Shown in pieces: positions 4,973 through 61,891 of a stretch of DNA of 64,000 bases (the first letter of the stretch is position 1; each line of letters starts with the position of its first letter). A program made the position numbers and the translations under genes. Source of the DNA: a virus; IMG/VR virus record IMGVR_UViG_3300031134_000007, positions 32,001-96,000 of that record; one strand, written 5' to 3'. The notes under the pieces were generated by a model. It saw only the letters and a list, made by a program, of their open reading frames with translations, did no database searches and had not been told where the DNA came from.

Positions 4973-7529
4973 TGGTTACATACCCAGAAAGCGACGTGCG
5001 CTTATTCAGGTACAGATCAATAACACGATTCAGGAAGTCGTATTGCAACGAGGTCACCGACAAGGTACCAGGCTGGTTATGCGGTTCAACAAGCACATAG
5101 GTCCAGTCGATGTCTTTGGTGCAATGATCGAACGCCATCCACCATTTGTACGGCTCAAGAATCTTATCCAGCTTTTCATCCGATCCCCACCCAGCGGCAG
5201 GTAACACCAGGAAGCCCAGCTTGAGGTCGTAAATCAGCTTTTGTAACAGCGGCGAATACACCACGTACTTTTGCTGAACAAAATTGGGATCACCAAAATC
5301 AGGCTGTGGGAATACCGAGGTCAGGTAAGCACCCAAACGGTTATCCAGATCCAACGCCGCCTCACGCTGTGGGAAGGTCTCGTAGTCATCAACACCCCGC
5401 ACACTCGCCATGACATTACTGATGTGATACGGCTGACCGTTATAGCTTGGATCTAATCCAGCGGCAGACGGAACGTCTTCTGCATACACCAGATCTTCAC
5501 GCCGTGCTACACGTCCAGCGATCACACACCGCACCGTACGATCATCACGCAAGTTAAACACGTCATTATTACTGATGTGCTCACGGGTGACCCAACCGAA
5601 CTCGTTAGCCGGCTGTGGTTGCAGATCAAGTGTGCCCCAGCCTGTACACCGCACAGTGAACTGCTGCGGCTGGTCAGGAACCAGGTAGGCTTTGTTGGTG
5701 ATCACAATCCGTGGATAGTTCATGATGTAATCGATACCCGGAACCAACGAATGCCGGTTCATAATGATATCAACATTCCCCGGTGCAATCGGTGCTTCTA
5801 AGCCACCACCTACCCAGTCGTACGTGATCGAGAAGGCCAGCGTTTTATCGAGATGGTCCAGGGTGAAATCATAACCCAGGAACACGTCGTTGAACACCAC
5901 CAGACCAATGTTGCGAACTTTGTTATGCACAAACGTAAGCTTACCTTGGTTCACCTTGTACACCGTGTCCAGGTTAGTGACGTCGGTCCAGGTCGTGTTA
6001 TCAACCGTGGTCTCATCCCACTTCGCCGTATAGACACGGTAACCATAGTCTTTCAACAACGGTACGTCATCGTTACCAAAAACGTAGTGCGGTGACTTAC
6101 TGGCTTTCCCGCTGTAGACTTCAATCAACGCCGCGTTTGCATTGTGTGCAATGTAGCGGTTGCCACCCGACTGGTAGTAGTTACCCAGGTACAAGCCATC
6201 ACTGTCGTATTCGTAAACCTGTGCGTTTTCACGCAGGCTTGGTGACAGCACGGCGTAACCATTGCTGGTCTCACCCTTGGTCAGTAACAGTGGGGTGTTA
6301 GCCATCACTTGGGTCATTGCGTTGTAACCGTATGCATCACGCACCAGGTTAGAGCTCAGTAACTTGTACTGCGCACCCAGCAGACGGATATAGTCACAAC
6401 GCTCCAGTTCAGCTGCGGACCATTCCGGCAGTGTTGCACGTACGTTCACCATCACATCAAGAATCAATGCATCGGTGAGTTTGTACATTTCATTTATACG
6501 GTTACTGTTAAAGGCAAGCTTTTGATCAAAGCCGCTTTTACGCATAACACACCGGACCGTACAATCGTTGAGCTGACCCCAACCTTGCTGCAACACAAAG
6601 TTTTGCAAGTACTGCACACAGAGTGCGTAATCACGATGGGTTAACTGACGGATTGCATCTTTGCGGTTGCGGTGGAAAAACACCCCCGTGCCATCGGGAC
6701 CGATCAACCAGAAGTCGAGGTCATCAAAGTACACCACGTCCAAATCCGTTTCGTCATTAAGACGTGGCGGATGGAAGATGAACTTCTGTCGATTATCCAA
6801 GGTGGACAAAAACGTCGGCATGGTTTTGACCGGAATGTCCACCACTTTGAATACCGAGGCATCGTACGACACCGTGACATAATCACGTTGACGGTAGGAA
6901 CCCGGGACAAAGTCATCCACCAGTTTACCGTTCACCAATGCCTGTGCCAACCCTTCCTTATTAGCCTTCAGTGACAGGTACTGATTCTGCCAACGCAAGA
7001 CCTCATTGGGGTTACTCATCATTCCGCCAAAGCAAAGCAGTTTATCCAACCGCTCTTCTTCTAACAGTGTTTCCCAGTAGGCGTTGCTGTAGACACGCAA
7101 GTACACGTCCACGTTACGCGGCACCGCCATGTTCTGGAAATCCGTGATAGCAATCAGGATGTTGTGATCGTAACGTAACCGTACAAAGACACCGGTGGCG
7201 GGAAGTTGCACACCGGTATCCAGGTAGACGTTTGCCACCAACATACGCATGTAACGCAGGTCACTTAAACGCACCCACTCTTCTAATGGTAACGGGCTGA
7301 TGTAACCATCACCGACGTTCCAGGTCCAGGGGTGGTTCTGTCCGATCTGAAAGACGTGGTACAGTTCTTTGCGGGTGGGTAACGGCACATACGCAGTCAT
7401 CACCGAACTGTAGTTGATATCACCAATGTCTCGTGAAATACGAGCCAGGTGCAACACGTGCTGACGATCGGCTTGTGGGTTAGCCCACGCGTTTTCAATT
7501 GCGTGGTTTACTAAATCGACGCTCGCCAT
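4959..7529 (-). CDS. virion structural protein (phiKZ gp27-like, putative baseplate-associated)
   Basis: 856-aa ORF; size and position match the phiKZ-like core block. Confidence 0.7.
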   Translation of the reverse strand: MASVDLVNHAIENAWANPQADRQHVLHLARISRDIGDINYSSVMTAYVPLPTRKELYHVFQIGQNHPWTWNVGDGYISPLPLEEWVRLSDLRYMRMLVANVYLDTGVQLPATGVFVRLRYDHNILIAITDFQNMAVPRNVDVYLRVYSNAYWETLLEEERLDKLLCFGGMMSNPNEVLRWQNQYLSLKANKEGLAQALVNGKLVDDFVPGSYRQRDYVTVSYDASVFKVVDIPVKTMPTFLSTLDNRQKFIFHPPRLNDETDLDVVYFDDLDFWLIGPDGTGVFFHRNRKDAIRQLTHRDYALCVQYLQNFVLQQGWGQLNDCTVRCVMRKSGFDQKLAFNSNRINEMYKLTDALILDVMVNVRATLPEWSAAELERCDYIRLLGAQYKLLSSNLVRDAYGYNAMTQVMANTPLLLTKGETSNGYAVLSPSLRENAQVYEYDSDGLYLGNYYQSGGNRYIAHNANAALIEVYSGKASKSPHYVFGNDDVPLLKDYGYRVYTAKWDETTVDNTTWTDVTNLDTVYKVNQGKLTFVHNKVRNIGLVVFNDVFLGYDFTLDHLDKTLAFSITYDWVGGGLEAPIAPGNVDIIMNRHSLVPGIDYIMNYPRIVITNKAYLVPDQPQQFTVRCTGWGTLDLQPQPANEFGWVTREHISNNDVFNLRDDRTVRCVIAGRVARREDLVYAEDVPSAAGLDPSYNGQPYHISNVMASVRGVDDYETFPQREAALDLDNRLGAYLTSVFPQPDFGDPNFVQQKYVVYSPLLQKLIYDLKLGFLVLPAAGWGSDEKLDKILEPYKWWMAFDHCTKDIDWTYVLVEPHNQPGTLSVTSLQYDFLNRVIDLYLNKRTSLSGYVTIAAG

Positions 7530-7541
7530 GACGCCCCCTTC

Positions 7542-8495
7542 TTACAGATCAATGGTGCCTGCGAAGCTGCGCATAAACACCTCTTTGGTTTTCTTGAATT
7601 CACCCCGGTCCAGAATACGACCCAGCACTGTGTTGCGGTAGTAGCTGTTGTTCGCAGAACCGTAGAGCATAGACAAGAACACCGGCGGATATTCCAAACC
7701 GATAGCGCCAGACTCAGCAGCATGACCACCAATCCACGCACCGCCAGCTACCGACACGAACATGCGCAGGTCCAGCAGTTTTAATTCTTCCGCCCCCACT
7801 ACTTCAAGAGCATGGGTAACGAAAGACTGTACACCAGACAGGAACGGGGCATCTTCGAGTGTTTCTGCCACGACGTCTGCACGTACCCGCGATTGGTCGG
7901 TGACTTTACGCACGGCATTCATTCTTACCGCTGGATCGGCAAAGTCGCTTTCATCGTAGAACTGACACACAAAGAACCAGCCACAATAAGCCAGGAAACG
8001 TGGCATTTCATTGTAGCCCATTTTGGTTTTGTTCGCGATGGCTTCTGCGACCCAACGGATGTAGACCTGCATCGGAATAGGTGACAGGTTCAAGAAGTCA
8101 CGCTGGTTACCGGACATCCAATACCACACCGCTTTCATGCGGATGATCTGCTGTTGCAAATCAGTGATGGCATTACGACTACGCAGCGCAATGGTGCCAG
8201 TTGCCTGATCAAACATTAATGCGGTGCGCGCATCGATAACGATGTTCTGTTTACCCAGTGTGTCGGTAAACGTGATAGGGTTGGTGAACGCTGTCTCGGT
8301 ATCATTACCGGTAATCCCGGCAACCAAGAACCACATCCCCTCGACCTTCACCGGACCATAAATGCCGGTTAAGCCAGGAATGGGTTTTGTTGCGGGGATC
8401 AGACGCTTTTCAATCTTTGCTAACTTCATTGCCGATTGGATCTTATCGATCGGGTTCCAACTGGCCGCTTTAGTCTGATAGGGGGAAATAAACAT
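7542..8495 (-). CDS. conserved jumbo-phage protein (phiKZ gp28-like)
   Basis: 317 aa, divergent from the sheath gene as in phiKZ-like phages. Confidence 0.65.
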   Translation of the reverse strand: MFISPYQTKAASWNPIDKIQSAMKLAKIEKRLIPATKPIPGLTGIYGPVKVEGMWFLVAGITGNDTETAFTNPITFTDTLGKQNIVIDARTALMFDQATGTIALRSRNAITDLQQQIIRMKAVWYWMSGNQRDFLNLSPIPMQVYIRWVAEAIANKTKMGYNEMPRFLAYCGWFFVCQFYDESDFADPAVRMNAVRKVTDQSRVRADVVAETLEDAPFLSGVQSFVTHALEVVGAEELKLLDLRMFVSVAGGAWIGGHAAESGAIGLEYPPVFLSMLYGSANNSYYRNTVLGRILDRGEFKKTKEVFMRSFAGTIDL

Positions 8496-52176: not shown

Positions 52177-52525
52177 CGTCTTTACCTTTACTCAGGAGCT
52201 TCACCATCAGTAGCCCAGCGGCCACTATGACGAAGCCAGTGCCCATGCCCACGCCCGCTGCTTCCAGCTTTTCTTGTGGACGACCAAAGTTCTCGCGTTG
52301 CATCTCTTCCTTAACGGTCTGGTCCTCCACAGCAGTCAGGCCTGCAGTGACCAGCTCCATTGAGCAGAGTAATGCCGCAGCGAGTGCGATCTTTTCAGCC
52401 GGGAGTTTCTTTAGTAGCAACCCGGCCGATACAGCACCCACAAAACCTGCCCCACGGGACAGGCGAGTGAGCAGTACAGTTTTACGTGCCGTGAGTGGGA
52501 TACTCACTTCGTCGATTTGACTCAT
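52157..52525 (-). CDS. Gly-zipper membrane protein
   Basis: Start MSQIDE at 52525 with AAGGA RBS; GAGFVGAVSAG and AAGVGMGTG motifs. Confidence 0.65.
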   Translation of the reverse strand: MSQIDEVSIPLTARKTVLLTRLSRGAGFVGAVSAGLLLKKLPAEKIALAAALLCSMELVTAGLTAVEDQTVKEEMQRENFGRPQEKLEAAGVGMGTGFVIVAAGLLMVKLLSKGKDDEQNTE

Positions 52526-52535
52526 GGCGAGATCC

Positions 52536-53249
52536 TTATTCAGCCGCGTTGTCGATGACGTCTTTGGCTTTACGTACAAGGAAACGACCAATGATCGCGC
52601 CACACACAACAGACCCTACCATGCTCGGGACGACTTCGTCGAACAGGTTGAACGTAGATGCAGCTTCCACTTCATCGGCATCACCGTGTTTGGCAATCAG
52701 ATCTGCTTTGTCTTTGCTGAGGCGAGAGATTGCGTTGTAGGCAATCAGACCACCGAAGATACCCGCAGTGACATCAGCAGCTTTCTTGCTACGGCCAAAC
52801 TTACGACCGGTTGCTGAAATGGTGGCTGCAGTAACAACCGCCATGCCGACGTTTTCGATGATCTGTTTGGTGCGGATGCCTTTACGAGCTTTAGCCACGT
52901 CACGGATAGACACGGTTTCGATTTGCTCTTCAGCCGCCGCCTGCACTTGCACCGCACCTTCTTGCAGTGCCGCTTCAACGCCTTTTGCCAGGTTGCTCAT
53001 TTCAACTTTCAGGTCGTTAGGGATTGCAGTGGTGTTGTTAGCGATAGTGTTAGTGTTCATGGTTACTTCCTCACAGGTAATGGTTTCAGATTGGGTTTCG
53101 ATAGTTACGTCGATGTGTGCCTCATCGGCACGGGCAAAATGCATTTCAGCCAGAGACGGTTGTGAGCGAATGTTCACGATGTTGTCAGTCTGGGTATGGC
53201 GTGCTTTCTTAAAATCACGGACTGAGTTGATCATTGCGGAATTGCTCAT
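52536..53249 (-). CDS. membrane protein with two candidate starts (53249 and 53060)
   Basis: Both ATGs have a GAGGA RBS; three hydrophobic Gly/Ala helices. Confidence 0.7.
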   Translation of the reverse strand: MSNSAMINSVRDFKKARHTQTDNIVNIRSQPSLAEMHFARADEAHIDVTIETQSETITCEEVTMNTNTIANNTTAIPNDLKVEMSNLAKGVEAALQEGAVQVQAAAEEQIETVSIRDVAKARKGIRTKQIIENVGMAVVTAATISATGRKFGRSKKAADVTAGIFGGLIAYNAISRLSKDKADLIAKHGDADEVEAASTFNLFDEVVPSMVGSVVCGAIIGRFLVRKAKDVIDNAAE

Positions 53250-53289
53250 AATACGTTCCTCGAAAAGAGTAGGCACAGGTTACATCTTA

Positions 53290-53297
53290 GTAATGTA
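53290..53297 (-). promoter_or_regulatory. early promoter variant TACATTAC
   Basis: One mismatch to TATATTAC, same plus-strand TAGG flank, upstream of an operon. Confidence 0.55.
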
Positions 53298-53346
53298 GGG
53301 GTAACATCCTGTGCGTTGTAAATTAGGGCGGCATAAAGCGAGGGTG

Positions 53347-53820
53347 TTACCCCTCGCTGTTGTGACTTTTGACATGCCAGTTTAAACGTGACAAGAGAGC
53401 AGGTGAAAGAACATCGGTGACACGTGCTAAGTGCACATAGCTCACTTTGTATTCCTTGACCTGTGTTTCGTCGTCACGGATTAGTGTGATAATGAACAAG
53501 GCATCGTCGCCCTGATCAGTAATCACACCAGACAGCCGATAACCGTCAGTGGTTTGGACATTGCTGAACTCTTTGAAGATCTCGGTATACAACTCAACGA
53601 ACGCATGAGTGCCGTAAAGGGTCAAGTGTCGATGTGCTGTACGCTCCGCAATCTCGTACATTTGTTCAGTTTGAAACGCCCGGTCCAACAACTCAGGAGT
53701 GGTCAGAACAACCCACCGCTTTTGATTGGTACCTGCTGGTTTCCGTATCATTGCACGAATCAGCAGAATGAAGAAGGTGATGATCGCCATGATAGCGACC
53801 CACTTAACTAAATCAAACAT
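53347..53820 (-). CDS. N-terminally anchored membrane protein
   Basis: Start MFDLVKWVAIMAIITFFILLI with GAGGG RBS (track start overlaps the upstream gene). Confidence 0.65.
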   Translation of the reverse strand: MFDLVKWVAIMAIITFFILLIRAMIRKPAGTNQKRWVVLTTPELLDRAFQTEQMYEIAERTAHRHLTLYGTHAFVELYTEIFKEFSNVQTTDGYRLSGVITDQGDDALFIITLIRDDETQVKEYKVSYVHLARVTDVLSPALLSRLNWHVKSHNSEG

Positions 53821-53830
53821 GTTATTTCCC

Positions 53831-54274
53831 TCAGATCGATTCTGCGACGTTTGAACATATGATTTTGAACTCACGTTCAACAATACTGTTGGTGCCAGTA
53901 ATGCCAGCACCGCCAAACAGACGCTCCAGACCTTTGTCTGACACATATTTGCGATACGCTTTCCACGCATTCGCTACGCCTTCTTTGGTGATCGCAGCGC
54001 CAGTAAACAGTTTACGGACGTTAGCTTTCAGCCAGGCATAGATATTAGCCAGACGGTCTTTCTCATCAACCAGGCTATAGCTCATTGCTACAGCGCGTTT
54101 GATATCAGATACATCAACATCGATGCCGATCAGTTTAGGGTTACGGAACTGGTAACGACGTTCAGCCAGACGAGCCACGCCATTCACGCCCAGTTCGTTG
54201 ATGTTTTCACGTACCATCGCAACGAATTCGTCAGACATTACGAAGGTCAGTTTTGCAGTGTTAATAGTGTTCAT
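53831..54274 (-). CDS. hypothetical early protein
   Basis: Start MNTINTAK with GAGG RBS; strong codon bias. Confidence 0.7.
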   Translation of the reverse strand: MNTINTAKLTFVMSDEFVAMVRENINELGVNGVARLAERRYQFRNPKLIGIDVDVSDIKRAVAMSYSLVDEKDRLANIYAWLKANVRKLFTGAAITKEGVANAWKAYRKYVSDKGLERLFGGAGITGTNSIVEREFKIICSNVAESI

Positions 54275-54342
54275 GGTAATACCTCTTTGCAATTGATTGA
54301 TTATGGTTAGTTTGCTGAGGTTCACATGAACGCTCAGCGATG

Positions 54343-54423
54343 TTAAGGACTATTGCAAACGAACCGGCACACCCTTGTAAGAGTAACCAGGTTAGTTTGG
54401 TTTAACGGACAGGATAATGGCAT
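54343..54423 (-). CDS. 26-aa Cys-containing microprotein MPLSCPLNQTNLVTLTRVCRFVCNSP
   Basis: AGGAGGT RBS overlapping the upstream TAG; translated by hand. Confidence 0.4.
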   Translation of the reverse strand: MPLSCPLNQTNLVTLTRVCRFVCNSP

Positions 54424-54434
54424 AGGACCACCTC

Positions 54435-54566
54435 CTAGAACTGCAGGTATGTGACAGTGGACTTAACATGCCCACGGCCGGCTTTCTTATTGATGTAGTT
54501 GAGAGCAGCAGTGGCTGCAAGCGAAACAACTACGGAGACAACAACTTTGGTAATGATCGATTTCAT
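54435..54566 (-). CDS. 43-aa signal-anchor microprotein MKSIITKVVVSVVVSLAATAALNYINKKAGRGHVKSTVTYLQF
   Basis: Preceded by CCTTAACCTGT plus GGAG; not in ORF track. Confidence 0.65.
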   Translation of the reverse strand: MKSIITKVVVSVVVSLAATAALNYINKKAGRGHVKSTVTYLQF

Positions 54567-54602
54567 GATAATGCTCCAACAGGTTAAGGCGAAACAAACT
54601 AC

Positions 54603-54836
54603 TTACTGCGTCAGATTCTCAATGCGTGGGTCAGTGGCAGCAACTGAGCGAACTGATTTGACACGGACCACAGGCTGCGGGGCAAGGATAACGATCTTCA
54701 GTTTCTCGTCGCCCTGGTCGATCTTGGTTTGATGACGCTTGTTACGGATCTTCTGAATCTGGACCTCGTAATAGACACCCGCCGCAATCATGGCAGTGCA
54801 AGCAGCAACGTAGGCAACTTTAGCTAATGTGTTCAT
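54603..54836 (-). CDS. small signal-anchor membrane protein
   Basis: MNTLAKVAYVAACTAMIAAGVYY followed by a basic tail. Confidence 0.7.
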   Translation of the reverse strand: MNTLAKVAYVAACTAMIAAGVYYEVQIQKIRNKRHQTKIDQGDEKLKIVILAPQPVVRVKSVRSVAATDPRIENLTQ

Positions 54837-54860
54837 AAGGGACTCTCACAGGTTAAGGGG

Positions 54861-55112
54861 TTATTTAACAACTTCGTACAATGGGGCGATACGGTTAAAA
54901 TCAACAGCTTTACCAATCAGATCCATGCACTCGATGTAGCTAGGACTGTTAGACTGACGAACGATTTTCATAACGGCTTCGTGTTGCTCACTACGAGTCA
55001 ACTTACGCAGCACCACTGGCTCTGGTTTTGGTTTACGTTTGAAAACAGTGGCGATAGCGGTTACAGCGACAGCAGCGACAGCGATGATGGCAACAGCGTT
55101 TACGTTTGACAT
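54861..55112 (-). CDS. small signal-anchor membrane protein
   Basis: AVAIIAVAAVAVTAIATVF-KRKPK. Confidence 0.7.
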   Translation of the reverse strand: MSNVNAVAIIAVAAVAVTAIATVFKRKPKPEPVVLRKLTRSEQHEAVMKIVRQSNSPSYIECMDLIGKAVDFNRIAPLYEVVK

Positions 55113-55138
55113 GATAGTTCCTACAGGTTAAGGGAAGG

Positions 55139-55234
55139 TTAAGCAGTTTCTTTTGAATCACCGTATGGAACATTCCACACAACGACCAGTGCAACAAACA
55201 GAACTAAAGATAAGACAGTCGTTAAATCAAACAT
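55139..55234 (-). CDS. 31-aa single-TM microprotein MFDLTTVLSLVLFVALVVVWNVPYGDSKETA
   Basis: Fills the gap between two 11-mer repeats; not in ORF track. Confidence 0.65.
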   Translation of the reverse strand: MFDLTTVLSLVLFVALVVVWNVPYGDSKETA

Positions 55235-55267
55235 GGAATATTCTCACAGGTTAAGGTTAAAGGGTTA

Positions 55268-55504
55268 TTACAGGGATGCTGCAGCGATATTGTCGATGGA
55301 CTTCTTGGCTTGGGCTTGGACCTCTTCGTTATGAGGGTGGGTCGCCGCCACTTTGTTAATAGCATCGATAGAGGACTCTGCCATGGCATCAGACAGTTCG
55401 TCTATGATGACTTTGGCTTCTTTGTGGTTCTTGACTAACAGCACGATACCGGTTGCGATGGCAGCGATAGATGCAGTAGCGGTAATGATCAGTTTAGTGT
55501 TCAT
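55268..55504 (-). CDS. small signal-anchor membrane protein
   Basis: MNTKLIITATASIAAIATGIVLLV-K; GAGGA RBS. Confidence 0.7.
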   Translation of the reverse strand: MNTKLIITATASIAAIATGIVLLVKNHKEAKVIIDELSDAMAESSIDAINKVAATHPHNEEVQAQAKKSIDNIAAASL

Positions 55505-55562
55505 GGTGAATCCTCATTGATTAGTTAGATGTAAGAGAAGTTTATTGCTCTTATTCACCTTT

Positions 55563-55577
55563 TTAATATAGGTCTGA
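55563..55577 (-). promoter_or_regulatory. early promoter variant (TATATTAA)
   Basis: TAATATAGGTCTGA shared exactly with the site at 55942. Confidence 0.65.
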
Positions 55578-55606
55578 GATTTTCTACAACTCAAAAGAAA
55601 CGGTTT

Positions 55607-55900
55607 TTACCAACCGATTGACACGCCGTCATCCATTTCACTCAATGCATCGTGGAGTAAGCGACCCGTCTTATCAATGTTTAATTCCTTTTTGGAACGT
55701 TCTTCCTTCAGTGCTAAGATTTCCGCATACAACATTTTTACTTTTGGTGCAAATTTCTTGGACTCCTGCAGGTTTGCTGCAAACCACTTCTTTTCCATTT
55801 TGGTATGTTTAGCAGTTAACTTTACCAACTGTGCAGTAATCTCAGTGATACGGGCGCGGTCGGCTTTAATGTCGGCTTGATATTCGATTACAGTTTTCAT
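55607..55900 (-). CDS. basic coiled-coil early protein
   Basis: 97 aa, between two early promoter motifs. Confidence 0.65.
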   Translation of the reverse strand: MKTVIEYQADIKADRARITEITAQLVKLTAKHTKMEKKWFAANLQESKKFAPKVKMLYAEILALKEERSKKELNIDKTGRLLHDALSEMDDGVSIGW

Positions 55901-55941
55901 GTTAGCGTCTCATGTTAAATTGGTTTGGTTTATACACATCG

Positions 55942-55956
55942 CTAATATAGGTCTGA
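55942..55956 (-). promoter_or_regulatory. early promoter variant (TATATTAG)
   Basis: TAATATAGGTCTGA, just downstream (on minus) of a terminator. Confidence 0.65.
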
Positions 55957-55993
55957 AACCATCTGCAGCTCGAAACAAACAAAAATAAAAGAT

Positions 55994-56051
55994 CGGCATA
56001 AAACCTCAACCCTTCCCCGTGAGGAGAAAGGTTGAGGCCTTACTTATGCAG
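55994..56051 (-). terminator. hairpin terminator, GCATAA/TTATGC family
   Basis: cggcataaaacctcaacctt..cccgtgagg..aaggttgagg..ttatgcag. Confidence 0.7.
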
Positions 56052-57273
56052 TACCCAGTACTTCTTTTGACACGGTGGTCTGACCGTTACCGTAGGTGCC
56101 CAGGAAGCGAGCCAGGTAATCAGCCTGCACATGGAACCACATATCCGGTTCAATGCGACCTGCCACCAGAATGATGGCCGCACGGTCTTCACGTGCCAGC
56201 TCGATGGTGACTTTAGCTTTGTCGCCAGCAAACTTGCCTTTCACACCCACGTCACCGGTTTGACCGTCAGCATCTTTCGCTTCAGCGACATCGTCTTCAG
56301 TCAAGACTTTCTGATAAGACGCTTCGAGACCGCCGTTCATCAGGTTGTATTCGAAGTCCACCTTAGCATCGGCCGGTGCAGCCGCTTGTGCGCGTTTGTA
56401 GACTTCTTCGCTGATAGACATCAGGTAATCAGCCAGATCGCCGGAGAAACGCTTGTACGCAGCCTGAGACGGTTTTACCACACGCTTCCAGTCACGGTGT
56501 TCGGCAGCATGACGCGCAACAGCGGAACGCACGTTGTTGCCTGCTGCATCATCAGCCGGATACGTGCTTGCGATATCGATGCTCTGAATATCTTCGTAGT
56601 TCACTTCGCCATCTTTGTTTTCGATGACATCCAGTGGACCACGTTTGTGTGTGACTACCTGCAGCAGGTTTTCGTCTTCGTTGTAGGCCAGCGTAGCACC
56701 CAGGTAAATGCCGTCGTCAGACTCTTTACCGTATTCCGCTTCCAGCATGGCTTTCTTGGCCGTCAGGAAATCAACTGCTTCTTGCACCAGCTTACGACCA
56801 ATGCGGTCGATGTTTTCCAGACGTGCTTCCCAACCTTTCTCGCCAGGCAGCAGAGTGACTTCTGGCAGGTAGTACAGGCCGATGTTCGGGTTGGTACGAC
56901 GCTGATGTGCATCTTTCGCAGCCTGCTGCAGATGGTCGTAGCGCAGGATGAATTTGAACGCCTGCATATCCGGGTTCAGTTGGGTGTGTGCGTCATCCAG
57001 GTAAACCACAGGCTTACCATCTACTACCGGCACAAACCACTCAGTCACAATGATGCGACGACGATCATGCTCAACATCGATGTCTGAACCAAAGGTCCAG
57101 TTAGCACGGTCGGCGACTTCAATGTCGCGATAGAAACGCAGACGCACAGATTGACTGGCGAAGTCGCGAATGGAATCCAGCACCTGATCGATCCAGTCCT
57201 GTTCCCAATGAACCGGAGCATTACGCTGAGCTTCTTTACGCAGTTGTTTCGTGTTGTTTTTCTTACCAGACAT
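56044..57273 (-). CDS. hypothetical protein, probably highly expressed
   Basis: 409 aa, GAGG RBS, strong codon bias with a long antisense shadow ORF. Confidence 0.8.
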   Translation of the reverse strand: MSGKKNNTKQLRKEAQRNAPVHWEQDWIDQVLDSIRDFASQSVRLRFYRDIEVADRANWTFGSDIDVEHDRRRIIVTEWFVPVVDGKPVVYLDDAHTQLNPDMQAFKFILRYDHLQQAAKDAHQRRTNPNIGLYYLPEVTLLPGEKGWEARLENIDRIGRKLVQEAVDFLTAKKAMLEAEYGKESDDGIYLGATLAYNEDENLLQVVTHKRGPLDVIENKDGEVNYEDIQSIDIASTYPADDAAGNNVRSAVARHAAEHRDWKRVVKPSQAAYKRFSGDLADYLMSISEEVYKRAQAAAPADAKVDFEYNLMNGGLEASYQKVLTEDDVAEAKDADGQTGDVGVKGKFAGDKAKVTIELAREDRAAIILVAGRIEPDMWFHVQADYLARFLGTYGNGQTTVSKEVLGTA

Positions 57274-57284
57274 GCGGTGGCCTC

Positions 57285-57692
57285 TTATTGACAGATCGTA
57301 TTTTTGAAATACGGTTTAGTATGTGCATACACGGTTGGTGCAAATTCCACAGAATGGATTACGACGCCCCTAAGTCCAAGGACTGTCAACCGAATACGGA
57401 AATCGATTACTTCAGCGGTAACACGCGGTTTACGTAACCACGTACTGTGGTCTACATAGATACAAGTGCTTATGTATTCTAATACTTGTCGCTCAACGTA
57501 CTTACGTAAACGGGTGGCAATAAAGTTCATGCGATCAACGCGATCACCGATTGGCTTGAGGTTGACAATGGCCAGGTAATCATCGGGTTGGGTGAGTGCC
57601 GCACTGATCTCGTTCAGCAACCAGGTGACCTGGCTCACGAGTCGTGGTGGAGGAGTCATTACAAAGCGTATCCGTACTGAGGTAAAAAACAA
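57285..57692 (-). CDS. hypothetical protein (start uncertain)
   Basis: 135-aa ORF. Confidence 0.5.
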   Translation of the reverse strand: MFFTSVRIRFVMTPPPRLVSQVTWLLNEISAALTQPDDYLAIVNLKPIGDRVDRMNFIATRLRKYVERQVLEYISTCIYVDHSTWLRKPRVTAEVIDFRIRLTVLGLRGVVIHSVEFAPTVYAHTKPYFKNTICQ

Positions 57693-57746
57693 AAGTGCAA
57701 CATAAAAGAAGAGAGCGGTTTCCCACCCTCTTCCTTATTGTGTTGA

Positions 57747-58304
57747 TTATGCCAGCGCCGCGTCGTCAGGCATGCTGCCTTCAAGGGCGGCGAACAGACC
57801 CGCCAGATTCTTGAGTGAACACTGAATCAGTTCAGCGTCAACCGCACAATCACCTTTACGCGCATGGTTAATGGCGATGATGACTTTGTGGTTGCCGAAA
57901 AGTGGTTTCAGCTCATTCTCAAGAACAGACTTAAGGGTATGAATTTCGCCACCCGCAAAGTAGTAGTCGTTAGCCAGTTTGGCTTTCAGTGACGCGTGAT
58001 GAAAGACGCCACGTAAACCACCCAGCATGTGATACTGGTGAACCGGTATTTTAACCGTGTCAGCGATCTCTTCACCCGACTTCACATTGATGATGTTAGT
58101 ACGGATGGTTTGAAAGAGACCGTCTTCACTGTTGAAGCCCAGGTTGAAACGGGTGTTCACATCAAAGCTTTCCCGCCCGCCATGCAGTTTGATCTGATGA
58201 CGGATGTCCGACTCGATGTATTGTTTCAAACGGATTAGGTATTCTTCAGCATTGGTGGCCGCGAGTGCCCGCACGACAGCTTCTTGGATAATGGATTGAA
58301 TCAT
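57747..58304 (-). CDS. hypothetical early protein
   Basis: 185-aa ORF. Confidence 0.65.
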   Translation of the reverse strand: MIQSIIQEAVVRALAATNAEEYLIRLKQYIESDIRHQIKLHGGRESFDVNTRFNLGFNSEDGLFQTIRTNIINVKSGEEIADTVKIPVHQYHMLGGLRGVFHHASLKAKLANDYYFAGGEIHTLKSVLENELKPLFGNHKVIIAINHARKGDCAVDAELIQCSLKNLAGLFAALEGSMPDDAALA

Positions 58305-58391
58305 GGATGGTGGACCTTTGAATTTATAATTGGTTGTTAATACTCAACCCCTGAGCAGAGTATTGGCTTGACGAACTTAATCGTCATAACA

Positions 58392-58475
58392 TCATTTTAC
58401 GTTACAGACAAACATCAGGGTTAAACCGATAATGGTCACCATCAGGATGCCAAGATTAACGAGTGAATTGTTCAT
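58392..58475 (-). CDS. 27-aa hydrophobic microprotein MNNSLVNLGILMVTIIGLTLMFVCNVK
   Basis: GAGGA RBS; first ORF after the promoter at 58533; not in ORF track. Confidence 0.55.
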   Translation of the reverse strand: MNNSLVNLGILMVTIIGLTLMFVCNVK

Positions 58476-58532
58476 CAGATTATTCCTCACATGTAAAGTA
58501 TTACATTTGTTTTCAGCTGAAAACTCACCATA

Positions 58533-58540
58533 GTGATATA
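58533..58540 (-). promoter_or_regulatory. early promoter variant TATATCAC
   Basis: GTGATATAGGT on plus; divergent from the helicase. Confidence 0.6.
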
Positions 58541-58596
58541 GGTTTAAAATCTGATGGAAATTGTATGTTATTCAACTATTAAAACAGGAACTACTT

Positions 58597-60729
58597 ATGG
58601 CTCTCTTTGACCGCGTTAAAGGGATGCTTGGGATCATCAGCGTTCGGGAACAGAACGGCTTAATCACGATCTCTGGCACACCCTCGCGTTTTATTCAGTA
58701 CGACATCGATAAACTGTGGGGCACTTCCAAGATTGCCAAATACATGTTTAAGAACGTGAAACCCAGCGAATTCTCGTTCCACAGTTTCTTTGCGTTGGAA
58801 GTGGTGTACATGTTCGAGAAGATGATCAATGACAAAACCCGTTACTGCAGTCGTCGGGTGTTGATTCGTATTGTTGAACTGATTAAAGAAAACACCTGGA
58901 TGAACGACATCGATGAGAACTGGGCTGACATCATCGACATCAATCGCACCAAACCTATCAAGTTTCCCCTGCTCCCCAGTCAGCGCGGGTTCTTGCAGTA
59001 CTATAACTACACTAAGCCGCGTTACCGGTTAAAAGGTGCGTTGTACGCCGCGGATCCCGGTGCCGGGAAGACCATCGGTGGGATCGCCACCATGTTTGCC
59101 CGTGACCTGGACTACGTCTTTGTCATCTCGCCAAAGAAAGCCATTTACGACGTTTGGGAGAAAACCCTCAAAGAAAGTATCAATGGCAATCAGACGACCT
59201 GGGTGGCCGATAGCAACACGGCATGTCCAAAGGGTACCAAGTGGATGATCTTCCACTATGAACGCCTAGGACAGGCTCTGGAGATGGCTAAGAGCCTACG
59301 GTTACCGAATGTGGGGATTATCCTCGACGAGTCCCACAACCTGAACATGAAATCAAAGGAATCGATTCGTACCGCAACCTTTGACGAACTGTGCGTCGTT
59401 TCCAAATCCCAGGATGTGGTGTGGCTCTCTGGTACCGCACTGACTGCCATGGGGTCTGAAGCCATTCCGTTGTTCCGCTCCTTAATCCCAGACTTCAACA
59501 GTGACGTTGAATTTGCCATGCGTAAGATCTGGGGCAAAGTCGGGGGCAAGGCAAACGACATCCTGGCAAACCGTTTGGGAATTGTGAGCTTCTTGGTGCC
59601 TAAGGAAAGCTTCATGTCTGACAAGCCGGTCGAAGACACGAAGAAGGTGAAGATCCCCAATGGTCAACGTTATACCCTGGAGGCGATTCGCACACTCATG
59701 GTGTCCTTTATTAAGGAACGCTTTGAGTACTACACCAAGAACCGGCCGGTGTATCAGCAGATCTACGACGACGCAATGATCGCCCACCGTCGTGACCTGC
59801 GCACGCAACAGGACCACGAAGCCTTTAAGAAGTACCAGGCGAACGTGGCAATGTTCCAGAAGTACGGTTTTGACCCCCGCACCATGTCAGACGAGTCCAA
59901 GTACTGTAACGATTACGAACTCAACGTGATCATCCCATCGTTGCCGGATTCGTTGAAAGCACCGTTCAAGGATGCCCGTTCGGTGATCAAGTACGTGGAC
60001 CTGAAGATTAAAGGTGAATGTCTGGGTCGGATACTGGGCAAGGAGCGTACGCAATGCCACATCGACATGGTCGCACACATTGACTTCCAACAGTACATCG
60101 ACAACGCCACGAAGAAGACGTTGATCTTTACGGACTTTGTCCCGGTGCTGGAAGAGGCTCGTCGGGTGTGTATTGAGAAGGGGTATAACCCGGTGGTGGT
60201 CTACGGTGACACGAACAATGAATTGGTGAGTATCATCAAGGATTTCCGTAGTAACGTTGACATTAATCCACTGGTAGCAACCTTCCGCTCACTGGCAGAA
60301 GCTGTGCCTGTAACGGAGGCCAACAACGGAATGATGTTGAACAAGCCTTTCCGTTTCCATCATTACAAGCAAGCTGTGTCCCGTATGCACCGCATCGGTC
60401 AGGACGAAACGGTTTACATCAACAACTTCGTTCTGGATACCGGGAATGAGCCGAACATCTCCACCCGCTCAGAAGACATCATGAACTGGTCTCGTGACCA
60501 GGTCGATCAGCTGATGGGGTATGATCGTTACGGTTCAACGGTCAATGTGCCAGAGGTTGCTGACGGGATCGGACTGGAAGCGCTGGATGAACCACCGTTT
60601 GACCCGGACGAAGGATTCCTGTCCAGTGGTAACGAAGCACTGTATAACTTCATGGAGGCAGAAGGGTTTATTGTCGAAGAGTTACCGACGGCCATTAAAC
60701 CACCACGCTCTAAAGCCATGAACTGGTAA
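58597..60729 (+). CDS. SF2 (SNF2-like) helicase
   Basis: ADPGAGKT, ILDESH, LSGT, QAVSRMHRIGQ; ATG 58597 has an AGGA RBS. Confidence 0.9.
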   Translation: MALFDRVKGMLGIISVREQNGLITISGTPSRFIQYDIDKLWGTSKIAKYMFKNVKPSEFSFHSFFALEVVYMFEKMINDKTRYCSRRVLIRIVELIKENTWMNDIDENWADIIDINRTKPIKFPLLPSQRGFLQYYNYTKPRYRLKGALYAADPGAGKTIGGIATMFARDLDYVFVISPKKAIYDVWEKTLKESINGNQTTWVADSNTACPKGTKWMIFHYERLGQALEMAKSLRLPNVGIILDESHNLNMKSKESIRTATFDELCVVSKSQDVVWLSGTALTAMGSEAIPLFRSLIPDFNSDVEFAMRKIWGKVGGKANDILANRLGIVSFLVPKESFMSDKPVEDTKKVKIPNGQRYTLEAIRTLMVSFIKERFEYYTKNRPVYQQIYDDAMIAHRRDLRTQQDHEAFKKYQANVAMFQKYGFDPRTMSDESKYCNDYELNVIIPSLPDSLKAPFKDARSVIKYVDLKIKGECLGRILGKERTQCHIDMVAHIDFQQYIDNATKKTLIFTDFVPVLEEARRVCIEKGYNPVVVYGDTNNELVSIIKDFRSNVDINPLVATFRSLAEAVPVTEANNGMMLNKPFRFHHYKQAVSRMHRIGQDETVYINNFVLDTGNEPNISTRSEDIMNWSRDQVDQLMGYDRYGSTVNVPEVADGIGLEALDEPPFDPDEGFLSSGNEALYNFMEAEGFIVEELPTAIKPPRSKAMNW

Positions 60730-60769: not shown

Positions 60770-61891
60770 ATGTTAGAAATGCTTGTAGGGGGTGGGGGTA
60801 AACCTTACTACCCGAAATCAGGACCCGGACCGAAGTCTCTTCAGTACGGCAACGAGCAAGCGGGTTACTTTGGTACGGTAGCCCAATCGCAGCTTTTCAC
60901 CCCCACCGAAATTTTCAATCAGTTGAACATCCCACTGTTAGGTCCGTCACTTGACGCCAGTATGCTGTGGGGTAAGTTCTATTACCAGGGGACCATTGTT
61001 TATATTCCAACCCGACCGGTTAACACTACTGCCCAGGTATTCAGCTGGGAGTCGTTATACCAAATGGGTTTGGTGTACGGAACAGACAACGACGGGGCTT
61101 ATCCTTCACCGGTATCGGCACCCTATAACCAGCGTACACTTATTGTGAAAAAGCTGGAGAACAAAGTTGCGGGCTTTAAAGTGCGACTGCCGAGTGCGGG
61201 AAACACCGACCCCATGACAGCAACGTTATCCGCAGCGGGTGAGTTCAGTGTGTTGCTGAGCAACATCATTGCGTTGGGTGTGGGTGCTGGCACAGGGAAA
61301 TGGGACAGTTTAGACACCACGGTGTTTAATAGCACGTCCTACGAACTGTCACTGACCTCGCTTTTAAACAGCACCACGTCTGCATTGTACGGTCGTGGCC
61401 TTACCAGCAATCCAGGGCAGTATTCGTACAGTAATCTATCAAAGACAGGAACCGCCGCCGCCATTTTGTGGTGGCCTGTTTTGCAATATATAAATCCCGA
61501 TGAAAACTTGCTCGATTTGATCAACTTTACTACCCAGTTACCGCAGCCAATGGCGGTGGATATGTTACAAACCACCGGCGAGTCAACCGGCGGTATTCTC
61601 AACGCGTTTAACGTAACGTCGTCACCTGTTGCTAAACCGGCACAGGCCTCGGCAACGTACACTGCAGTGGTTTCACCGGTTAACCTTTATCCGTCTGTTG
61701 CAGGTCCTGCACCGCGGGTAACAAAAGTCACTGCCGAACCACTCCAGGGACCCGTCAACATTGTAGTGAGTCATGTCGACCCCACCCCGGTCCTGAAGGT
61801 TGATAACCCGATGACTGTGTTTAACCCGTTTGCACCGACAGTGCGTTATGAACCTAAACCACTGACCGGTCTGAAACTCGCCGACCAATAG
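60770..61891 (+). CDS. virion/tail-appendage paralog family member 1
   Basis: GPGP..L.YG....GYFG.V, WGKF, WWPVL shared with the downstream genes. Confidence 0.65.
   Translation: MLEMLVGGGGKPYYPKSGPGPKSLQYGNEQAGYFGTVAQSQLFTPTEIFNQLNIPLLGPSLDASMLWGKFYYQGTIVYIPTRPVNTTAQVFSWESLYQMGLVYGTDNDGAYPSPVSAPYNQRTLIVKKLENKVAGFKVRLPSAGNTDPMTATLSAAGEFSVLLSNIIALGVGAGTGKWDSLDTTVFNSTSYELSLTSLLNSTTSALYGRGLTSNPGQYSYSNLSKTGTAAAILWWPVLQYINPDENLLDLINFTTQLPQPMAVDMLQTTGESTGGILNAFNVTSSPVAKPAQASATYTAVVSPVNLYPSVAGPAPRVTKVTAEPLQGPVNIVVSHVDPTPVLKVDNPMTVFNPFAPTVRYEPKPLTGLKLADQ

Follow-up and report, generated by a model that had tools for sequence, protein, structure and literature searches.

A start-linked motif in a jumbo-phage clade: a candidate ribosome-binding-site signal and joint between small membrane-protein genes

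For the start-associated sequences (SAS) of Cluster K mycobacteriophages, whose function is unresolved, a role in translation has been proposed (PMC3203893). In jumbo phages, the early promoters, which are used by the virion polymerase, carry a conserved AT-rich block of ~10 nt; for the nucleus-forming members, middle and late promoters cannot be predicted by sequence analysis, and the transcriber of the phiKZ middle promoters is unknown (PMC7598289). Here, we describe an 11-nt motif, CCTTAACCTGT, found in bases 32001-96000 of the 104-kb phage fragment IMGVR_UViG_3300031134_000007 from IMG/VR, which is ~37% complete; these 64,000 nt are referred to as the window. Four exact copies of this 11-mer stand in an array of genes for small, predicted membrane proteins. 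The 11-mer is the strongest form of a start-associated signal found throughout one phage clade, with the consensus (A/C)CTTAAC(C)YGT. We tentatively favour the view that the motif is an mRNA signal at the ribosome-binding site (RBS), read by a phage factor, and that the shuffling of gene cassettes at its copies would be a by-product.

The proteins of the window share 56-58% identity with their counterparts in Salmonella phage SA002 (288 kb) and in the Erwinia phages pEa_SNUABM_37/48 (294 kb), and ~24% with those in the Agricanvirus phages RAY and Ea35-70. The gene order around the array is common to SA002, pEa_SNUABM_37/48 and the Agricanvirus phages. A paper that treats RAY has the nucleus-forming phage family as its subject (bioRxiv 10.1101/2023.02.24.529968), and a complete 273-kb relative of the window phage, G002, encodes a beta-like RNA polymerase subunit. 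Given this shared gene order, the family of RAY and the polymerase subunit of G002, the source phage is treated here as a chimallivirus-like jumbo phage. The genomes compared were the 104-kb record (G000), G002, the isolated phages SA002 and pEa_SNUABM_37 (pEa37) and the closest relative, L005, whose 409-aa protein next to the array is 91% identical; the 280-kb metagenome contig L139 comes from this same phage. A metagenome scan for further relatives returned the L005 phage again and nothing else.

Distribution of the motif

An earlier note on this DNA had reported four exact minus-strand copies of the 11-mer, and a sequence search placed them at the same coordinates (Table 1), where ~0.03 copies would be expected in the window; the whole 104-kb record contains no further exact copy. 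With up to one mismatch, five matches were obtained against a shuffle mean of 0.92, none of 100 shuffles reaching five, and a repeat finder recovered the 11-mer independently as family D1. The position described for each copy, between a stop codon and the next RBS and 10-12 nt from the ATG, was borne out by measurement: the stop codon lies 2-20 nt before the copy, GAG, AGGA or GGAG follows directly after it, and the gaps from motif end to ATG are 11, 10, 11 and 12 nt. Of two partial copies that had been proposed, the one at 53073 is a member of the family. The other, at 53275-53282, was rejected, since another early promoter, CTACATTAC (53299-53291), has its start region there and no RBS adjoins the copy.

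One suggestion had been that the 11-mer is a joint specific to cassettes, an idea that is not supported given that the same motif adjoins the Shine-Dalgarno sequence (SD) of ~10% of the genes in G000, G002, SA002 and pEa37, single genes in conserved synteny included. In the 104-kb record, CTTAACCTGT followed by SD and ATG is found at two more sites outside the array. In G002, the 10-mer with at most one mismatch occurs 36 times in the forward and 7 times in the reverse direction (reversed-pattern controls, 3 and 7), and most of its intergenic copies stand directly ahead of an SD and ATG. When gene starts for G000 and G002 were taken from a crude gene caller and the motif was modelled by an iterated position matrix, 42 of 457 called starts carried it, at a distance from the ATG with a mode of 12 nt (10-13 nt at 36 of the 42). 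Positions A-6, C-5, G-2 and T-1 are nearly invariant in a motif of ~14.6 bits, the 8 nt upstream are G-poor, and the 3' end lies 0-2 nt from the SD, on the sense strand only. Without a gene caller, SD, ATG and open reading frame (ORF) follow 16 of 36 sense matches but 0 of 13 antisense matches in SA002, and 16 of 40 against 0 of 15 in pEa37. Start-linked copies number ~16-30 per complete genome.

The motif is retained at orthologous sites, ahead of genes of 288/289, 135/126, 152, 110/136, 43 and 27 aa and at one internal start, between phages whose compared proteins share only ~50-60% identity. Ahead of the 152-aa gene, three phages have inherited the variant CCTTGACCTGT. The internal start lies in a 237-aa ORF (52536-53249, minus strand), where motif, SD and ATG are kept in five genomes (the window phage, L005, G002, SA002 and pEa37) and would give a 174-aa product; its conservation suggests two protein forms from one gene. 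A scan of viral contigs with CCTTAACCTGTWGGAG gave >100 matches, all of them at one coding site of an unrelated, abundant phage family. A full-text literature search with TAACCTGT returned primer sequences only, and searches that included the names SA002 and pEa_SNUABM_37 found no paper describing the motif.

Genes that carry the motif belong more often than others to units with an early promoter (22/42 versus 86/417; odds ratio 4.2, p 2.5e-5), an enrichment that is underestimated, as the promoter pattern misses some variants. They also encode small proteins with an N-terminal helix more often (12/42 versus 12/417; odds ratio 13.5, p 9e-8). The five array genes share this architecture, and the 31-aa and 157-aa genes of the array unit have the same first 13 nt, as if the copies were function-less leftovers from the tandem duplication of one ancestral cassette. 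Such an origin is, however, extremely unlikely, because the motif is exact while the coding sequences are dissimilar, and because it occurs genome-wide ahead of unrelated genes in four genomes.

In the Agricanvirus phages RAY and AH06, no enrichment of the motif was found (16/9 and 14/6 matches, versus 8/7 and 10/10 in controls). RAY and pEa_SNUABM_37 share the host Erwinia amylovora, and since RAY is not enriched, whatever reads the motif is likely to be a phage-encoded factor rather than one supplied by the host. This bears on a further proposal, namely an enhancer of translation that the host ribosome itself would read, like the epsilon element of T7 gene 10, which is TTAACTTTA and lies next to the SD. 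Motif and epsilon have TTAAC in common and occupy the same place directly 5' of the SD. Yet the pairing of the motif with the 16S and 23S rRNA of E. coli, which may not be the host, is not above that of shuffled motifs (142 of 200 shuffles equal it for 16S), and the best duplex, of -9.6 kcal/mol, lies outside the 16S region 458-466. The motif-bearing genes tested have no match to a family of known function, and SD strength is unaffected by the motif. Together with the lack of enrichment in RAY, these results make a host-read enhancer quite improbable.

Level at which the motif may act

Since the motif heads ~10% of the genes in four genomes, including single genes in stable synteny, it is very probably an expression signal in the first place and not a dedicated recombination site, with recombination as a by-product. 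The earlier note had offered either a recombination joint or an RNA element for processing or translation control; of these, the RNA and translation-control element is still the best reading, and the joint is retained only as a by-product. In the mRNA-signal reading that we favour, the motif would act within the stretch covered by the initiating ribosome, where a phage-encoded factor may read it and thereby set, or switch off, ribosome loading on a mostly early class of genes. Identical copies ahead of consecutive small genes provide 11-15 nt of homology and could lead to the exchange of cassettes as a side effect.

The rigid contact of 0-2 nt between motif and SD favours a signal at the RNA level. 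At ~9 sites the motif lies in a leader already served by an early promoter 25-45 nt upstream, and is there transcribed into the mRNA. The conserved in-frame motif, SD and ATG inside the 237-aa ORF is also counted as a pointer to the RNA level, and structure prediction makes the motif zone slightly more single-stranded than the equivalent stretch of other genes (0.60 versus 0.53, p 0.006). In a second register, SD-CTTAAC-ATG-T, the start codon lies inside the motif, an arrangement found at 5 of 423 starts versus 10 of 11,968 other ATGs, which is ~14-fold. This register favours the RNA level because transcription from the G of the motif would lose both SD and AUG there.

The same observations bear on the main alternative, possible if rather unlikely, of a compact promoter for a phage multisubunit RNA polymerase, perhaps of the middle class, in which CTTAAC would be recognised and transcription would start at the conserved G, giving a leader of ~14 nt that opens with the SD. 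The Y-G-T end of the motif matches a start with a pyrimidine at -1 and a purine at +1, ~14.6 bits suffice for ~40 sites in 280 kb, the restriction of the motif to one clade would suit a polymerase, whose specificity can be restricted likewise, and G002 has its beta-like polymerase subunit. The non-virion polymerase of phiKZ needs only TATG overlapping the start site, the reader of the phiKZ middle promoters being unknown (PMC7598289, PMC12809450), and PHIKZ054 has tandem early and middle promoters (PMC8244752). On the other hand, the consensus differs from TATG, a rigid contact with the SD is not demanded of promoters, the early promoter is already in place at the ~9 sites mentioned, and a start at G would strip SD and AUG from the second-register genes.

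About 12 motif sites lie 3-10 nt after a terminator, which could be taken as a sign of promoter activity. This argument was dropped, because a start 21-28 nt after the hairpin-TTTATGCCG element is also seen in many genes that lack the motif, so that adjacency to a terminator is undiagnostic. The terminators of the clade (G000; G002 L009-L022) consist of a GC hairpin with the fixed tail (C)TTT(T)ATGCCG, and TTATGCCG is present in G002 in 33 plus-strand and 21 minus-strand copies. The tail includes a TATG of the phiKZ type, yet ~11 copies stand at convergent gene ends without a downstream gene.

Early messages of other phages are cut for comparable purposes, at the RNase III sites of T7 early mRNA and by T4 RegB. 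An endonuclease site that cuts the early polycistronic message ahead of each RBS would agree with the single copy ahead of every internal array gene, with the enrichment in early units and with the predicted single-stranded motif zone. It is nevertheless improbable: the motif also heads first and single genes, where no separation is needed, a RegB homolog is absent, and the motif has neither an RNase III hairpin nor an Rfam match.

Several points weigh against the favoured mRNA-signal reading. The level of action is only inferred from the sequence, and no reader was found, homologs of RegA (PF01818) and RegB (PF10715) being absent from the four genomes. The second register is based on just 5 to 7 sites. 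The conserved 3' Y-G fits the pyrimidine(-1)/purine(+1) start rule, so that a compact promoter is quite possible, and SD strength is equal with and without the motif (-6.1 versus -6.3 kcal/mol, p 0.70). The linkage to starts of matches of at least 14 bits (an end 8-17 nt ahead of a called start for 9 of 12 in G000 and for 16 of 26 in G002; chance 0.006) is partly circular, the matrix having been trained on start-associated sites; the 10-mer counts in G002 and the replication in SA002 and pEa37 are not circular. The apparent shuffling, described below, is evidenced by a single pairwise comparison of one close genome pair.

The equal SD energies rule out the motif as compensation for a weak SD. 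A search for an antisense partner of the motif in the intergenic DNA of G000 and G002 gave trivial self-antisense sites only, and Rfam returned nothing meaningful on 52500-58700. It is conceivable, though we say so with some reserve, that the motif marks a regulon of ~30-40 mostly early genes, read by a sequence-specific phage factor in one clade of nucleus-forming jumbo phages, and that it also acts as a joint for genes of tiny membrane proteins.

Cassette edges and the small-gene array

The prediction that gene-order breakpoints in a related phage would fall on the motif was upheld: the window has the blocks in the order A-B-C-D and L005 in the order A-C-B-D, and the blocks begin at the 11-mer (Table 1). 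In both the window and L005, blocks B, C and D have their 5' ends no more than 1 nt away from where the 11-mer begins, and the only sequence common to the short intergenic junctions is the motif or the motif with GAG(A), up to 15 nt. As judged by comparison of the two gene orders, the 31-aa cassette is shown to have moved at motif copies between the window phage and L005. The spacer between motif and ATG also differs at one junction, so that the crossovers map to no more than about a dozen bases from the motif and not to a single fixed bond.

A dedicated site of a site-specific recombinase or nuclease, as in integrons, would account for cassette edges that match the motif within 1 nt in both genomes and for an array content that varies among relatives. 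We regard it as very unlikely, given that the distance to the ATG is fixed, that single genes in stable synteny retain the motif ahead of them, that the motif lacks inverted-repeat structure, and that its spacer to the ATG differs at one junction. Moreover, the neighbouring insertion or deletion uses another repeat, pointing to homology-driven exchange at any available repeat: a 97-aa gene with its own promoter is absent from L005, and the segment is bounded by two 51-nt copies of the early promoter, 75% identical (family D2). A small hairpin lies at 55616-55601, just upstream of the 51-nt promoter repeat.

Of the array genes, the 43-aa gene alone is constant among the more distant relatives. 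Members of the 83-aa family occur in three genomes, and RAY and AH06 have no annotated small genes at the array site. The L005 ortholog of the 78-aa gene is 82% identical, whereas in G002 this family is represented by a weak homolog that belongs to a different array. The 83-aa gene has orthologs in L005 and SA002 and five database relatives, four of them on ~280-kb contigs.

Five consecutive genes had been said to encode an N-terminal hydrophobic helix followed by a short, usually basic, tail. ORFs of 78, 31, 83, 77 and 43 aa are indeed present, and their best 17-residue hydropathy values (2.13, 2.69, 2.69, 1.64 and 2.15, respectively), located at residues 4-7, agree with the helix, the 77-aa protein being borderline. 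Only three of the tails, those of the 43-, 77- and 83-aa proteins, are basic; the 78-aa protein has a mixed tail and the 31-aa protein an acidic one. The reported lack of mutual homology was confirmed by BLASTP among the five, which gave no similarity. The earlier note had suggested that the products may serve in superinfection exclusion, vesicle handling or the inhibition of membrane-bound defences. Searches of the small array proteins and the motif-bearing genes against PHROGs, Pfam and a protein atlas assigned no function and gave no structural match. The array proteins are in common driven by an early promoter, with an N-terminal helix, a mostly basic stretch after it and rapid turnover.

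An early promoter had been placed near 55563 at the head of the array, in agreement with TTGAGT-18-TATATT, found at 55594-55565 by a sigma-70-like scan, which fits the clade-wide early-promoter consensus tgcAGa..aTTTcA.ACCTATATTAcc.aGGTG. This consensus has the same general shape as the AT-rich early promoters of other jumbo phages (PMC7598289). The 57-nt element of promoter and leader at the array head recurs three times in G002 (near 60870, 99653 and 199849), and each of the three arrays of small membrane proteins in G002 is headed by it. ARN triplets, five of which make up the leader, are the pattern bound by the distal face of Hfq.

Table 1. Features of the array locus and related sites. 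Positions refer to the window unless a genome is named.
Feature	Position	Strand	Remarks
Block A	55601-55243	-	promoter and 78-aa gene
Block B	55257-55164	-	31-aa gene
Block C	55133-54625	-	83- and 77-aa genes
Block D	54589 onward	-	43-aa gene and downstream
27-aa membrane micro-gene behind motif variant ACTTTACATGT (58499-58489)	58392..58499	-	conserved in all five relatives
97-aa gene (phrog_36317) with own early-promoter copy (55930-55980)	55607..55980	-	repeat family D2; segment missing from L005
Early promoter and conserved leader, array head	55540..55597	-	core CAGACCTATATTA at 55576-55564; leader GGTGAATAAGAGCAATAAAC, five ARN triplets
78-aa gene, N-terminal hydrophobic helix, first in array, without own 11-mer	55268..55504	-	ORF list, hydropathy
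Motif copy 1, 5' edge of cassette B	55246..55256	-	exact match, L005 alignment
31-aa gene, cassette B; placed after 77-aa gene in L005	55139..55234	-	ORF list, L005 comparison
Motif copy 2, 5' edge of cassette C	55123..55133	-	exact match, L005 alignment
83-aa gene, N-terminal helix then basic stretch	54861..55112	-	ORF list, hydropathy
Motif copy 3, within cassette C	54848..54858	-	exact match; degenerated to CTTTAACTTGT in L005
77-aa gene, N-terminus borderline hydrophobic	54603..54836	-	ORF list, hydropathy
Motif copy 4, 5' edge of block D	54579..54589	-	exact match, L005 alignment
43-aa gene; sole array member kept in all five relatives, motif still ahead of it	54435..54566	-	ortholog comparison
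26-aa ORF, cysteine-rich, non-hydrophobic, uncertain as gene, behind strong perfect AGGAGGTG site	54343..54423	-	ORF list; L005 has it too
147-aa (phrog_11150) and 157-aa (phrog_10789, N-terminal helix) genes, end of array transcription unit	53347..54274	-	PHROGs, hydropathy
Terminator closing array unit, GC hairpin then CTTTATGCCG	53329..53356	-	sequence
Diverged motif copy CCATTACCTGT inside 237-aa ORF; GAGGA, then in-frame ATG at 53060	53073..53083	-	repeat family D1
Second-register sites	G000 27125, 21555; G002 76257, 171173, 222843; SA002 64739, 277845

The uncertain 26-aa ORF sits downstream of the 43-aa gene, in a gap of 160 nt. An identical 13 nt, cATGTTTGATTTA (MFDL; 55223-55235 and 53809-53821; repeat family D11), opens both the 31-aa and the 157-aa gene, and the former may be a copy, in truncated form, of the N-terminus of the latter. 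Three other starts share ACCATGAACACTAA (MNT), at 53050-53063, 54264-54277 and 55494-55507. The 27-aa micro-gene (in the region 58392-58545, minus strand) is preceded by an early-promoter variant, CTATATCAC, and by a perfect palindromic leader hairpin, GTTTTCAGCTGAAAAC, and is unannotated in SA002 and pEa37. In SA002 (L007), 7220-7597 is annotated as a 126-aa ORF. Inside it, an 81-aa ortholog of the 83-aa gene is signalled by motif, SD and ATG at 7352; the deposited start is probably too far upstream.

Comparison with known systems

Gene control after the early phase is poorly understood in nucleus-forming jumbo phages, and the present clade supplies a sharp signal of ~14 bits for a defined class of genes. 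Two isolated phages, SA002 and pEa_SNUABM_37, carry the motif, which makes it accessible to experiment. If it is the target of a translational regulator, the reader would be one without homology to RegA or RegB; if it is a middle-class promoter, a post-early promoter would have been found by sequence alone, an approach that has had no success in these phages until now. Either way, the same signal would also be a joint for the exchange of tiny membrane-protein genes between arrays. The motif is also a concrete case of a regulatory repeat driving the turnover of tiny early membrane proteins. The genes of such proteins are often overlooked in annotation, as with the one inside a longer ORF in SA002.

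T4 RegA and RegB are phage-encoded and exert class-specific control at the RBS of early messages. A comparable control is proposed here, with the difference that their homologs are absent and the target sequences differ. The T7 epsilon element is defined by pairing with 16S rRNA 458-466, which the motif does not show with the rRNA of E. coli (which may not be the host). Integron attC sites are imperfect inverted repeats that fold into hairpins, whereas the motif is linear and asymmetric, as judged with a search of the junctions for direct repeats.

The TATG of the phiKZ non-virion polymerase resembles the motif in that it is a tiny consensus of nucleus-forming jumbo phages at a presumed transcript start, with a T/C-G end (PMC7598289, PMC12809450). 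The motif, known here from sequence alone, has CTTAAC-C-Y-G-T instead and is rigidly tied to the SD. Its 3' end is C-Y-G-T, and ATG is found there at only 7 of 42 sites.

The earlier note had drawn an analogy to the T4-type PeSL elements, which is sound as regards the breakpoints on the repeat and fails as regards the composite build, the 11-mer having neither promoter hexamers nor a stem-loop. In both cases, repeated expression signals flank small genes annotated without function in variable regions, and recombination between copies inserts, deletes and reorders genes between close relatives (PMC2839356, PMC4122927). PeSL elements combine a sigma-70-like early promoter with a terminator stem-loop, while the 11-mer offers only 11-15 nt of homology (PMC2839356, PMC4122927). 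The loss or gain of the 97-aa gene between promoter repeats follows the PeSL pattern (PMC2839356), and the PeSL-like element of the window is the 51-nt early-promoter repeat flanking that gene rather than the 11-mer.

The SAS of Cluster K mycobacteriophages are the closest functional analogue (PMC3203893). Like the motif, they are short asymmetric repeats in tens of copies and in one orientation, just upstream of the starts of a subset of genes (non-structural genes in the case of SAS), kept at orthologs, tied to ATG starts and absent from related phages; the ~16-30 one-orientation copies of the motif per genome are in keeping with the 11-19 given for SAS (PMC3203893). The SAS consensus, GGGATAGGAGCCC, is unrelated to (A/C)CTTAAC(C)YGT; it includes the AGGAG core of the SD and leaves 3-7 bp to the start (PMC3203893), whereas the motif stands on the 5' side of the SD and leaves 10-13 nt to the ATG. 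Unlike SAS, the motif has no extended inverted-repeat partner, and phage type and host differ; a role of SAS as a cassette joint did not come up in the accessible part of that paper (PMC3203893). The motif is therefore related to known kinds of elements and a member of none, and its closest analogues are SAS and the PeSL elements of T4.

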